From contig OY970364.1 in NCBI GenBank assembly GCA_963718565.1, positions 448,001 through 512,000 on the forward strand: a stretch of 64,000 nucleotides of DNA, written 5' to 3'. The DNA is from an uncultured Verrucomicrobiae bacterium. Its GTDB lineage: Bacteria > Chlamydiota > Chlamydiia > Chlamydiales > Rhabdochlamydiaceae. Below are positions 3,267-42,997 of the stretch, piece by piece (the first letter of the stretch is position 1; the number at the start of each line of letters is the position of its first letter). Position numbers and translations under genes: made by a program. The notes below the pieces were generated by a model. That model saw nothing but the letters and a program-made list of their open reading frames with translations, searched no databases and was not told the origin of the DNA.

Positions 3267-3448
3267 GAGGGAATTGCAAAACTCTTCGCCGCATAAAATC
3301 GCGCTTTTGGCACACGTCGCCTTGGCGGCAGCTCTCCTATTTATCCAAGTATGCTTTCGCCGCCGCCAACCGAACCCGCTATGCGGGTTCTAGCAACAGG
3401 TGCCAAAATCATCGATTTTCTGCTGGCGAAGAGTTTTGCAATTCCCTC
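3267..3448. mobile_element. Family A MITE-like element, 182 bp
   Basis: Perfect 24-bp TIR GAGGGAATTGCAAAACTCTTCGCC; flanked by 4-bp direct repeat CTCT (3263-3266 and 3449-3452). Confidence 0.9.
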
Positions 3449-38029: not shown

Positions 38030-38166
38030 CTATCATAGACTTATAAATGCGCAGCAATTTTATGGCCAATTGAGTTTTATTGCCTAGAATTTTTCTGTGA
38101 TTTTACAAAAAAAAGCAGAGAAGTTGTATCATCTATTTACGATTACTGAATTTTTGAGTCTACGAT

Positions 38167-39120
38167 ATGGAACGACGAAAACTTGTTATTATTGGATCTG
38201 GTCCTGCTGCTTATACTGCGGCCATTTATGCGGCGCGCGCTAATCTTTCTCCTCTCGTTTTTGAAGGATTTTTTTCTGGCCCTGCAGGTGGCCAGTTGAT
38301 GACGACGACCGAGGTGGAAAATTATCCCGGCTTCCCAGAGGGGATCTCTGGACCAAATCTTATAGAACAGATGCGAAAACAAGCGGAGAGATTTGGAACG
38401 GTAATCTTGGCAGAAGATGTGGCCTTAGTCGATCTTAAAGTTCACCCCTTTGTGATCCATGGAAGTCCAACCAGCGTTCAAACGGAAGCATTGATCATTG
38501 CTACGGGAGCAACGGCAAAAAGACTCGATGTTCCAGGAGCTAGAGATGGAGAGTTTTGGCAAAAAGGAGTCACAGCTTGTGCTGTGTGCGACGGTGCCGC
38601 ACCTATTTTCCGCGACAAGGATCTCTATGTGTTTGGTGGAGGAGATACCGCTGTTGAAGAAGCGATTTTTCTCACCAAATTTGGTAAGAAAATTTTTCTA
38701 GTCCATCGTCGTGACGAACTCCGCGCCTCCAAAATCATGGTCGAGCGCGCATTTAAAAATTCAAAAATTGAAGTCGTCTGGAACCATGTCCTTGTTAAAG
38801 TCGAAGGAGACTCTGTCGTCAAAAGCGTCACTTTACAGGATGTAAAATCAGGACAAGAGACGAAACGCGAAGCCGGGGGTGTTTTTTTTGCGATCGGGCA
38901 TACTCCCAACACCGCATTTTTACAGGGACAGGTGGAACTTTTTCCAAATGGCTATATCAAAATCAAGCCAGGGACGTCTTATACTAATATCGAAGGTGTG
39001 TATGCGGCTGGTGATGTTCAAGACCCTATCTATCGTCAAGCCGTAACCGCAGCGGGTTCTGGGTGTATGGCGGCACTGGATGCAGAGCGCTGGCTCTCGG
39101 AAAAAGGGCCTATTGAATGA
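38167..39120 (+). CDS. trxB: Thioredoxin reductase
   Basis: [26 protein letters not shown]. Confidence 0.98.
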
Positions 39121-40202
39121 CTATATACCGAGGGAATTGCAAAACTCTTCGCCGCATAAAATCGCGCTTTTGGCACCTGTCGCCTTGGCGGCGGCTGCCT
39201 TCGGCCCCGGTTCGCTCCTTCGCTCACCTGTTTTGCACTGCGAAGGTTCCCCGGACCTTCTCGTGTCTTCGCAGCCACTTATCCAAGTATGCTTTCGCCG
39301 CCGCCAACCGAACCCGCTGTGCGGGTTCTGGCAACAGGTGCCAAAATCATCGATTTTCTGCTGGCGAGGAGTTTTGCAATTCCCTCTACCGCAAGATTGT
39401 TTGGTGTGTGTTTCTATCTCATCCGGTTTTCCTCTTTGCTCTTCAGACAAAGCCTTGGCTTGGCAATCAGTATGAGTTTGATTTCGAATCAGCATTTACC
39501 TATTCCCGCTATCATAAAGTTGAAGGTGCTTCAAGACAGCTAAAGAGTCCGTCTAACGATTACGATCTATTCTTTGATCTCGGATTTACGCCGCGATATG
39601 ATTTCGATGTGCGTGCTGAGATCGAATTAGCTGACACCCCGCGTCAAAGTTTCAACTGGCGCAGCGCAGCGCTCCAAGCGCGCTATCAATGGCTCGATGA
39701 TATTGCCGGAGATCCCATCAGCTTGACGACTGGACTTAATTTTCGAGTTGCTCCCCATCATGCTTTAAGGGATGTCAGCTGTCCTTATGCCTCTTATGCC
39801 AACTATGAACTGACAATGTCGGTCGGCAAAGAATGGTCAAAAGAAGGGGAGTGGATCATGAGAACTTATGGTTATGCTACCGCCGGTATCGCAAATCATG
39901 GTTCTCCTTGGACGCATGAAATGGCCACATGGCAGTTCAACTGGCAAGACACTCATGCGCTTTTCTTATTTGCTATAGGAGATTTTGGTTTTGGCCATCA
40001 ACAACATGTCAATGTTCATCGTTTCAATGGCTGGGGAAAATTTCTCCATCAATCTGTTGACTTAGGTCTGGCCTATCGCTATCGACTCAGTATTTGGGGA
40101 ACACTGACTGTATCCTATGCCCATCGCGTGTTCGCCCATAATTATCCTGAGCATGTCAACTTTTTTACACTGGCCTATTATCTTCCCTTCTCATTTTTTT
40201 AG
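39117..40202 (+). CDS. Putative outer-membrane beta-barrel protein with an in-frame 87-codon repeat insertion in its N-terminus
   Basis: ATGA overlap with the trxB stop; aromatic amphipathic strands; C-terminus YYLPFSFF. Confidence 0.75.
39130..39386. mobile_element. Family A MITE-like element, 257 bp, intragenic
   Basis: 24-bp TIR with one mismatch; 4-bp direct repeat TACC (39126-39129 and 39387-39390); collinear with 3267-3448 plus an extra module. Confidence 0.92.
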
Positions 40203-40262
40203 GTTCATCCGACGAATGAGTACCTTTCAGTGGTACTCATTCGTCGGATGAACCCTTTTTTA
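40202..40262 (+). terminator. 23-bp perfect-stem hairpin followed by a T tract
   Basis: GGTTCATCCGACGAATGAGTACC-N7-GGTACTCATTCGTCGGATGAACC, directly after the TAG stop. Confidence 0.7.
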
Positions 40263-40855
40263 ACCTGAGTTTTACGCCATGTGCCAGGGTACATGCAATT
40301 AATGGCGACAACAGTAATTCCCGCTTAAATTTTTTCGTATAGACTAGTATACTGCTTTTTCCGGAAAAATTTTCGTAAAGAGCAGTTTATGAAGCACCGT
40401 CCTCACCAAAAAGAAAAAAAAGCATTATCTGTATCAGGCCTTCTCGGCATCGTTAGGAATGTATTCGCTCAAATATCGAGCGTTATTAAAAGCAAGAAAA
40501 TCAGTTTGTCCGATTGTCTCATGTCGGCGTTGGCGATTTCGTCAGAGGGATTAAGAAGGAATTCAAAATGACTGTGGGCAGAAACAGGTATACATTTTGG
40601 TACGCGAATAATGTTCCTCTGAATGAGACAAAAAATGCCCCGAATGTGAATTTTTTAGAATGTGAATGGGAAGAAGTTCGAGGGGTTAAGGGAAAAACAA
40701 TTCAGAAAGGTCATTGCGGCTGGGCAATAAGCCACGAAATCACGGTTAAAAATATTTACGAATTAATGCGCGGAGGGCGCGCCCGATGGAAAATTGAAAA
40801 TGAAACTTTTAACACGCTCAAGAACCAGGGCTACCAATTCGAGCACAATTTCGGC

Positions 40856-42997
40856 GTGCGACACGAGGCTGTCCACGAAGTTGCTTAGCAATAAGCCATC
40901 TGTACTACCAGATGAATCTAGGGGTCTGAATAAAGAGCGATCCTGACAACGTAGTGAAAGACCGAAAGGTTTGGGGAACGAATTGTAAAACAAGGTCCCT
41001 CCTGCAAACCACAAGGCGGGTGAGCGCTAGATAGTGAGTAAGGCGAAAGAATTTGAATCCGTGTTTAAAGATCGTTATGTGTAACAAGCGAAAGTGGTTG
41101 CTACGCTTGAGCCAAAATGGCAAGGAAACGAGTGAGACACGAACTGAATATGTCCACGTAGTTCAATGTTTCCCGGTTGAGAGCGGGCGCCTAACCTCAC
41201 ACATACTTCAAGGATGGAACGTGGAAACCTCATATTGCTCCGTTTTTTTTTGAAAGCGAAGACATCTCGTAAGAGATGTCGACAACAATATGAGATTGAG
41301 ATGTCGGAAGAAGCAAATGTCGATCTGTAATGGGTCGAATATGGGTTGAAATATTACCCGACGCGAAAGCGAGCCCACGTCTGACGGGTCTTTCTTTGTG
41401 AGAGAAATTGTAGAACCATTGAAACGGAGGAAAGCAAATGACAGCATTATCAATGGCTGGTGCACCTTCGGCAAAAGCTGCAAACTGGAAACTCATCAAC
41501 TGGGTCACAGTGCAACAGCAAGTACGAAGGCTGCAACTGCGTATCGCAAAGGCTATAAAACAAGGACGTCATGGTAAAGCCAAAACTTTGCAATGGCTCC
41601 TAACACATTCATTCAACGCCAAACTCTTGGCAGTAAAACGAGTCACACAAAACAAGGGCAAAAACACCCCAGGTGTGGATCGTATCATTTGGAGATCTCC
41701 AAATCAAAAGATGCAAGCAGCGAATTCGCTGAAACGGAGAGGATATAAATCCCTTCCACTAAGACGAATTTATATTCCCAAAAAGAACGGAAAGTTAAGG
41801 CCATTAGGAATACCCACAATGACAGATAGAGCCCAACAGGCATTACACCTGCTGGCTCTCGAACCCGTTGCGGAAATCCAAGCCGATAAGAACTCTTACG
41901 GTTTCAGGCCAAAACGATCAATCCATGATGCCATTCAACAATGCTTTATCGCATTGGCACACAAGGCGTCCTCCGGATACGTCTTAGAGGGCGATATCAA
42001 GTCATGTTTTGATAAGATTTCCCACGAGTGGATGGAAAAGAATACCCTCATGGATAAATCGATATTACGACAATGGCTAAAAGCTGGCTATATAGACAAG
42101 AACGTTTTTCATCAAACGGAGGACGGCACCCCACAAGGGGGATCGCGTCACCCACGCTAGCCAACATCGCATTAGACGGTCTTGAAAAAGCCCTAAAAGC
42201 GATCAGCAAGCAGAGCGACAAAATCAACTTTGTGAGATATGCCGATGATTTCATCTGTACGGCTGTATCCAGAGAAATTCTGGAGCAAAAAGTGCAGCCC
42301 ACAATCATCAAATTCCTACAAGAACGTGGCCTAGAACTCTCCATGGAGAAGACTAAAATCACGCATATTGATGAAGGGTTCGACTTTCTCGGTTTCAATT
42401 TGCGGAAATATAAAGGAAAACTCCTAATTAAGCCCGCCAAGAAAGGAATCAAAACCTTTCTAGATGGACTCCGAGAAACTGTACAATCTAACCGCGCTTG
42501 GTCGGCAGAGCAATTGATCCAAATCCTAAATCCAAAGATCATAGGATGGGCCAACCACTACCGATACAGCGTGGCCAAGGAAACTTACAGTTATATAGAT
42601 AAAAGTGTCTTCTGCAGTATTTGGAGCTGGTTAAAAAGAAAACACCAAAACAAAAGTAACTCATGGATCCGAAACAAGTACTACACTCGAATCGGCCTGA
42701 GAAACTGGTGCTTCTTTTCAAGGAAGAAGAACAAGACTCCGAAAGGAGAACACGTGATCTTAGCCTCAGCTTCCGACACACGCATCAAAAGGCATGTGAA
42801 GATTCAAGCTGAGGCAACTCCCTACGACCCAGAATACCAAGAGTATTTTCGTAAACGCGATCACTTGCAAAGAATGGTGAGAAAATATAGCCGGGCTAAT
42901 AATCAGGGCCTTAGAAAGGCTTGAGCCGTATGCGAGGAAACCCGCACGTACGGTTCTTAGAGGAGCTGACCACAGTAATGTGGTCGGCTTAATCGAT
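40856..42997 (+). mobile_element. Group II intron (probably IIB / chloroplast-like class)
   Basis: 5' GTGCG at 40856; domain V GAGCCGTATGCGAGGAAACCCGCACGTACGGTTC at about 42923-42956; domain VI and AT 3' end at 42996-42997; excision rejoins GGC|CAT in frame. Confidence 0.93.
41438..42924 (+). pseudogene. ltrA: Intron-encoded reverse transcriptase/maturase with a one-base frameshift; no HNH endonuclease domain
   Basis: LRPLGIP, YGFRP, EGDIKSCFD, GTPQGG then a frame change at the G5 run 42137-42141, then VRYADDF, GFDFLGF, LNPKIIGWANHY. Confidence 0.92.

Follow-up and report, generated by a model that had tools for sequence, protein, structure and literature searches.

An in-frame MITE in the predicted signal peptide of an outer-membrane barrel gene, one of a genome-wide set of genic copies in a rhabdochlamydial genome

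Rickettsia palindromic elements (RPEs), repeats of about 150 bp that fall into ten families, occur 44 times in Rickettsia conorii genes (Ogata et al., 2000, 2002; PMC10969869), and in the passages of PMC10969869 devoted to them nearly half of these genic copies are stated to be in frame, each of them encoding a conserved peptide. ERIC-type elements are described in the same passages as carrying open frames and as being sometimes intragenic (PMC10969869). Here, a miniature inverted-repeat transposable element (MITE) of 257 bp was analyzed that lies in frame near the start of an outer-membrane barrel gene of an uncultured chlamydia (Rhabdochlamydiaceae in the GTDB lineage; NCBI GenBank assembly GCA_963718565.1, contig OY970364.1). 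The window, that is, the whole stretch of DNA analyzed, comprised 64,000 nt (positions 448,001 to 512,000 of the contig, forward strand); positions below are those of the window unless a contig coordinate is given, and the genome, a single contig of 2,284,058 bp, is referred to as G000. Judged from sequence, the barrel gene is probably still translated from its old ATG, with 87 added residues that lengthen the n-region and are removed together with the signal peptide, and the barrel locus is one member of a genome-wide set. To our knowledge, selfish repeats residing in frame in genes have so far been a textbook peculiarity of Rickettsia.

The feature at 39130–39386 is a MITE, as defined by terminal repeats, a fixed duplication, small size and many copies. 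Its terminal arms, a left inverted repeat at 39130–39153 (plus strand) and a right one at 39363–39386 (minus strand), are 24 nt long and 96% complementary, two more arm pairs lie within, and the whole is flanked by the target-site duplication TACC (left copy, 39126–39129; right copy, 39387–39390), the junctions in the window reading ...ATGACTATATACC / GAGGGAATTGC...GCAATTCCCTC / TACCGCAAG.... The insertion point is between codons 4 and 5 of the barrel gene (after MTIY), and element plus duplication (257 + 4) add 261 nt, or 87 codons, with no stop in the frame used, a reading made in the first-pass annotation of this DNA and correct to the base. The gene stays open because the addition is 261 nt and because the frame in which the element is read is one of the three that are stop-free. 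In this frame, the barrel-gene copy encodes a basic, cysteine-rich peptide containing 17 K+R, 2 D+E and 6 Cys and no hydrophobic window. The G+C content of the element is 57.6%, compared with 43.6% for the genome, and RNA of the element region was predicted to fold as a single long hairpin of −159.5 kcal/mol (z −9.4), with 0 of 100 shuffled sequences as stable. Relative to the family consensus, the copy carries 5 substitutions, 1 of them private. A search of Rfam with the element returned no matches at E up to 1.

The host gene is an open reading frame (ORF) of 361 codons at 39117–40202 on the plus strand (stop at 40200–40202; 274 aa without the insert). Its ATG (39117–39119) overlaps the stop codon (TGA, 39118–39120) of the preceding ORF, trxB, which encodes a thioredoxin-disulfide reductase-like protein of 317 aa (38167–39120, plus strand; Pyr_redox_2, E 1.5e-50), to form ATGA. 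The same overlap (GAAAAAGGGCAT..GAATGA or GGATGA) was found in five genomes of the same genus (L032, L034, L035, L036 and L037), in which 3–5 codons separate the ATG from the hydrophobic core. Because this junction is kept in five relatives, 39117, which had been proposed as the real start from the overlap at this locus, is the ancestral start, and the element therefore lies inside coding sequence and not in a leader. Relatives of the part after the insert numbered 120 among those listed at E ≤ 1e-43, nearly all of 253–294 aa with three shorter, and the named ones among them came from Rhabdochlamydiaceae, Chlamydiota, Simkaniaceae and similar groups. The 87 inserted residues are absent from all 19 aligned orthologues, which begin with the insert-free N-terminus that had been expected. 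In G004, the nearest relative searched (86% identity), the barrel gene has an empty site, so the insertion is younger than the split from G004.

The barrel gene is single-copy in G000 and present in 27 of the 30 other genomes searched. All 68 columns invariant among the 19 orthologues are kept in the insert-bearing gene, which therefore gives no sign of the decay that had been named as the finding to speak against a working gene. AlphaFold2, run on the alignment, returned 12 strands over residues 121–358 (39477–40190, plus strand) with pLDDT mostly 75–94, while residues 1–111 were without confident structure, and the best solved matches in Foldseek were FapF, the COG4313 channel, OmpG and NalP (probability 1.00, E down to 2e-8). 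Outer-membrane barrels typically carry a C-terminal aromatic residue as beta-signal; the protein ends in ...LPFSFF, with all 20 of 20 sequences sharing the final F. On these structural predictions, the host product is an outer-membrane beta-barrel protein, in agreement with its first assignment to the outer membrane. Among metagenome contigs from four soil or other runs that were compared with 38700–40300, the organism was present at low depth, in pieces of 151–225 nt and with 0 differences; none of these contigs spans either element junction, filled or empty.

A promoter-like site lies upstream of trxB (38063–38090, plus strand; a consensus match only, 9/12), no promoter-like site was found between the element and the barrel, and a terminator-like hairpin with a 20-bp stem followed by a T run (40205–40251, plus strand) stands directly after the barrel gene. 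With a promoter-like site before trxB, none after the element and a terminator after the barrel gene, the arrangement fits a two-gene operon of trxB and the barrel gene that would be translationally coupled through the ATGA overlap, with the reservation that the region contains 4 promoter-like sites against 2.8 expected, so that the promoter signal is weak.

The order of a bacterial export signal, in which a hydrophobic core of about 10–15 residues comes after a positive n-region, is preserved across the insert: the n-region, with 17 K+R in the extension and then R92 and K93, is followed by the core at residues 94–108 (39396–39440, plus strand; hydropathy windows 1.6–1.9), so that the leader measures 108 residues with the insert and 21 without it. 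As a rule, signal peptidase I cuts where positions −3 and −1 are small residues. The residues before L109 are L-F-A here and A-F-A in most orthologues (..AFA/LETKPW..). L109 itself is invariant, and the likely cut is after A108 and before L109. Signal peptidase I is encoded in the genome. The basic insert peptide suits a cytoplasmic n-region. We infer translation through the element, followed by export and cleavage, along the following lines. A MITE inserted with a 4-bp TACC duplication into a conserved, single-copy barrel gene. After terminating on trxB, ribosomes would begin again at the overlapping ATG, opening the hairpin as they read, and the resulting precursor of 361 residues would carry an 87-residue, strongly basic and unstructured extension of its n-region. 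Its first 93 residues would stay on the cytoplasmic side, the unchanged core (residues 94–108) would engage the Sec machinery, and signal peptidase I would cut after A108, leaving a mature barrel the same as before the insertion. The insert would then be a tolerated selfish passenger and not an adaptation, surviving because signal-peptide heads are thrown away in any case.

Within the window, 10 occurrences of the 18-nt element end were counted where 0.17 would be expected, so the family is not due to chance. In G000, the whole element gave 125 matches, and its ends were matched 171 and 165 times on the two strands. Paired copies, defined by both ends within 400 bp, numbered 83, with size classes of 182 bp (23 copies), 257 bp (8), 258 bp (7) and 259 bp (4) plus many deletion derivatives, and a perfect 4-bp target duplication, mostly A+T-rich, was present in 53 of the 83. 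Elements with ends GAGGGAATTGCAAAACTC are a large superfamily of non-autonomous elements, since the same ends also enclose other inner sequences; the 257-bp and the 258/259-bp copies are two subfamilies set apart by shared indels. An inner module of 80 bp (39197–39276) is replaced by CTCCT in the 182-bp variant (joint 39196>39277). This module resembles short repeats in many genera of the family (80–94% identity), is repeated in tandem, about every 83 bp, at G110:C2:201247-201974, and may be a second small element nested within the first. At 14 places in the genome, two 10-nt element tips are joined end to end as an exact 20-bp perfect palindrome (for example, C1:275828-275847, 361110-361129 and 922454-922473); these could be minimal elements or excision footprints.

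No autonomous insertion sequence with the family ends was found among end pairs 700–3000 bp apart (simple pairings only), and no transposase domain was found in the 361-aa product of the insert-bearing ORF. Two candidate partners were rejected: a 422-aa DDE transposase between two ends is part of an ISAs1-like element, whose ends differ from those of the family and whose duplication is longer, and a repeated end at 408802/409801 is followed by ordinary paralogous proteins. The ISAs1-like insertion sequence (DDE_Tnp_1 and DDE_Tnp_1_assoc, 422 aa; ends CAGGGCCATTTAACTAAAA) is present in G000:C1 in 11 full copies, for example at 1624357-1625622; the protein is identical in 10 copies, nearly full in one and split in two, and one copy is inserted inside a MITE. 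Among the longer proteins of a 5.8-billion-protein set, searches for the insert peptide in other organisms gave 4 and 7 proteins, all from its own contig; as the method depends on shared 5-residue words, absence elsewhere is weakly supported.

Copies were scored as genic when an open frame ran through the paired copy into a long ORF or when in silico excision restored a long ORF. Of the paired copies, 18 are located inside genes with an in-frame start ahead of them; none of the 18 contains a stop and each has a (length + 4) divisible by 3, where half would be expected in frame for random landing with 3 of 6 frames open (binomial P 4e-6), and no gene was found broken by this end-family. Divisibility of (length + 4) by 3 was found in 17 of 17 in-ORF copies and in 30 of 66 others (Fisher 1.5e-5). 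The excess of frame-preserving intragenic copies that the first-pass annotation had anticipated is thus 18 of 18 against half, with none disruptive, and harmful landings seem, on this sequence record, to be purged. Copies at 451267, 2114366, 1793002, 1321732 and 25637 were considered as broken N-termini and rejected, being located just upstream of real starts or at extreme 3′ ends of genes, and one apparent gene-breaking copy sits directly before rpsL. At window positions 3267–3448 (G000:C1:451267-451448), a 182-bp copy precedes the ATG of a minus-strand, membrane-protein-like ORF by 6 codons; it has stops in the frame of that ORF and is therefore a leader insertion, not a coding one. All 8 copies of the 257-bp subfamily are genic and none is intergenic, and 15 of the 23 copies in the 182-bp class lie outside genes; the lack of intergenic 257-bp copies is more than a simple filter on harm can account for.

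The host genes, identified by Pfam and NCBIfam, are of unrelated kinds. In an OppF-like ABC ATPase the insert separates the N-terminal strand from the Walker A region, in an RluA-family pseudouridine synthase a 152-position domain is spread over 209 residues, and in MutY the NUDIX domain is split by the insert. Further hosts are an isochorismate synthase, a SET-domain protein, the single-copy tsaB (TsaB), an amino-acid-binding protein, PBP4, a gluconolactonase-like protein, a Legionella-OMP-like protein, two glycosyltransferases, an FKBP protein, a MORN lipoprotein, a collagen-like protein and two unknowns. Because inserts lie inside domains and in single-copy tsaB, function is compatible with the hairpin being part of a coding mRNA.

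A signal-peptide-like hydrophobic core no more than 32 residues after the insert was found in 11 of the 18 hosts, the barrel gene among them, and in these 11 the insert lies 0–12 codons after the start. Of the element's three open frames, two give basic peptides and one encodes a hydrophobic stretch, a helix; inserts read in this hydrophobic frame occur in 8 of the 11 exported hosts and in none of the 7 cytoplasmic ones (Fisher 0.004), a count that becomes 8 of 12 against 0 of 7 (P 0.013) once a further, truncated copy in an FKBP gene is added. The barrel-gene copy uses a basic frame. Confinement of the hydrophobic frame to exported hosts would point to selection on the encoded peptide; if it holds, the choice of frame reflects selection at the protein level, and hence the inserts would be translated. 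The G000 copy in the gluconolactonase-like gene has two indels, −1 and +1, that compensate for each other and preserve the frame.

A search of 120 other genomes of the family found related elements in 35, often as the inner 80-bp module only. In G004, 3 copies lie in long ORFs, and all 3 are within signal peptides. One is a related in-frame element in the signal peptide of a ZnuA-like lipoprotein. The second, in the MORN lipoprotein orthologue, is at another codon and in the opposite orientation to the G000 copy and is therefore an independent insertion. The third, in the gluconolactonase-like orthologue (L085, G004:C130), is of the 182-bp form and occupies the same nucleotide in the same orientation as G000:C1:1018889-1019145. 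Both ends of this G004 copy carry G004's own variant (GAGCC.ATTGC / GCAATTGGCTC), and in the same-site pair each copy has the end variant of its own genome, with both arms changed (GGGAATTGC versus GCCGATTGC); the pair may represent an old insertion that was later homogenised, or two landings on a hot spot. The G001 orthologue of a DXD glycosyltransferase host of G000 also has an element before its hydrophobic core. A broader proposal is that the signal-peptide head is a safe harbour, in which signal peptidase discards the parasite peptide and which therefore collects in-frame MITEs repeatedly and independently in related species, the tolerated frame being decided at the protein level, such that the frame encoding a membrane-like helix persists in exported proteins only. 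We hold this proposal tentatively, as a possibility a little short of an even chance.

Several points weigh against a barrel gene that is translated through the element and loses the long head harmlessly. Sec signal peptides usually have about 18–30 residues, and one of 108 residues is far outside that range. The hairpin starts 13 nt after the ATG, where it could impede re-initiation or serve as a substrate for RNase III, for which the genome has a gene, and with 1 private substitution the copy is young, so that a dead gene may show no decay yet. Since 3 of its 6 reading frames are open, inserts free of stops are also nothing unusual for the element, and any 257-bp copy keeps the frame with its 4-bp duplication by arithmetic alone. 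The element has 4 stops against 9.6 in shuffles (P 0.007), a modest shortage; a mirrored control was not significant (P ~0.2), at least three open frames were reached in shuffles with P 0.06, and the notion that the element evolved to be stop-free is only partly supported. In the genome-wide test, genes were defined by ORF length and domain matches rather than by gene calling, the hydropathy value above which hosts counted as exported was chosen after a gap in the values (1.65 to 1.92) had been seen, and the division of full-size copies by presence in ORFs (257 bp, 8/8; 258/259 bp, 0/11) is a contrast between subfamilies and not 19 independent events.

The age and the structure of the copy are also what give force to the reading that the insertion silenced or strongly lowered the barrel gene, its open frame being mere survivorship of a very recent event. 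Silencing could come about by a hairpin of this stability (−159.5 kcal/mol, z −9.4) blocking coupled re-initiation, by RNase III cutting the stem, as described for Correia-element transcripts in Neisseria in the relevant part of PMC10969869, or by the oversized basic leader jamming export; a random landing, moreover, stays open with a 50% chance. Set against this, the same hairpin is carried with intact frames by single-copy tsaB and by the RluA, MutY and OppF-like domains, the absence of any gene broken by the end-family suggests that harmful landings are purged, and the barrel gene is single-copy, near-universal in relatives and without decay. Silencing is accordingly judged unlikely, while still the most serious competitor. 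That translation instead starts downstream of the element, at the in-frame GTG 39408 or ATT 39396, with the upstream ATG and the element forming an untranslated or separately translated leader, would find a starting signal in the GAGGAG motif at 39366–39371 in the element's right end, but this motif is 24 nt before the ATT and 36 nt before the GTG, too far for a ribosome-binding site. A start at the GTG would leave about 10 hydrophobic residues and no positive charge, there is no in-frame ATG, GTG or TTG between 39117 and 39408, and no promoter-like site follows the element; a promoter inside the element was likewise rejected. We consider a downstream start very improbable. Equally little credence is given to an adaptive insert, acting as a regulatory RNA structure (temperature- or RNase-dependent, setting barrel against trxB) or as a functional leader peptide. 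The strong RNA structure and the repeated hits in signal-peptide heads of two species would agree with such a role, but hosts differ in which of three frames, and in which orientation, they read the element, so there is no single conserved peptide, 19 aligned orthologues do without the element, and the pattern fits a filter on harm rather than on gain. Of the two outcomes put forward in the first-pass annotation, indirect evidence favours a harmless long signal peptide over an effect of the hairpin on expression.

Downstream of the barrel gene, at 40389–42924, the window holds a transposase-like fragment (ORFs 40389–40888), of which 40514–40885 was without a Pfam match. It is followed by two overlapping ORFs (41438–42160 and 42073–42924), which by eye resemble a frameshifted group II intron reverse transcriptase.

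The set of genic copies adds a second, unrelated obligate intracellular lineage with in-frame repeats, in this case a bona fide transposon with a clear survival rule: copies persist in the part of export signals that is discarded, their head, and at a few permissive positions in enzymes. Such a rule is a natural experiment on the length and charge that a bacterial signal peptide can tolerate, and bears on how protein-level selection filters mobile DNA and on how new N-terminal sequence is gained. If signal-peptide heads are indeed a safe harbour, the inserts are translated, and the helix frame could yield new signal-anchors or export signals. For annotation, insert-bearing genes are easily mis-started or called pseudogenes.

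In the parts of the literature covered, which included sections of the chlamydial genome papers PMC9723776 and PMC13229535 and did not extend to subscription journals, neither coding MITEs in chlamydiae nor MITEs in signal peptides were described. An expansion of MITEs in a host-restricted intracellular bacterium is reported in the portion of PMC9769881 on the Cardinium symbiont of Oedothorax gibbosus, as here, but in a different phylum and with a different element. Correia elements of Neisseria and ERIC/IRU elements of enterobacteria share with the chlamydial element that they are MITEs forming long mRNA hairpins, and differ in being mainly intergenic and acting on transcript level; the passages of PMC10969869 on them describe no systematic in-frame residence in signal peptides. 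The host product itself invites another comparison. The extension in the barrel precursor is 87 residues long, transposon-derived and absent from orthologues. Autotransporters, by contrast, have extended Sec signal peptides in which a long N-terminal extension precedes a normal n-h-c signal and is removed at export, and these extensions are about 25 residues long, conserved and of host origin.

RPEs remain the nearest counterpart. As far as they are described in the passages named at the outset, both are selfish repeats, short and palindromic, carried by an obligate intracellular bacterium, both lie in frame in unrelated genes, and both add tens of residues to genes that are apparently functional. 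The first-pass description of the locus as RPE-like held in that an in-frame palindromic repeat is present in many unrelated genes (18), and failed in that no single conserved peptide is encoded: the chlamydial element occurs in either orientation and in three frames, whereas RPEs are described with one conserved peptide. It also has inverted ends of 18–24 nt, with 53 of 83 copies flanked by a 4-bp target duplication, measures 182 or 257 bp against about 150 bp for RPEs, and in genes sits mostly (11 of 18) at signal-peptide heads and not in surface loops. The two belong to different phyla. The chlamydial family is an RPE-like variant with transposon ends, a concentration in signal peptides and a home in a different phylum.

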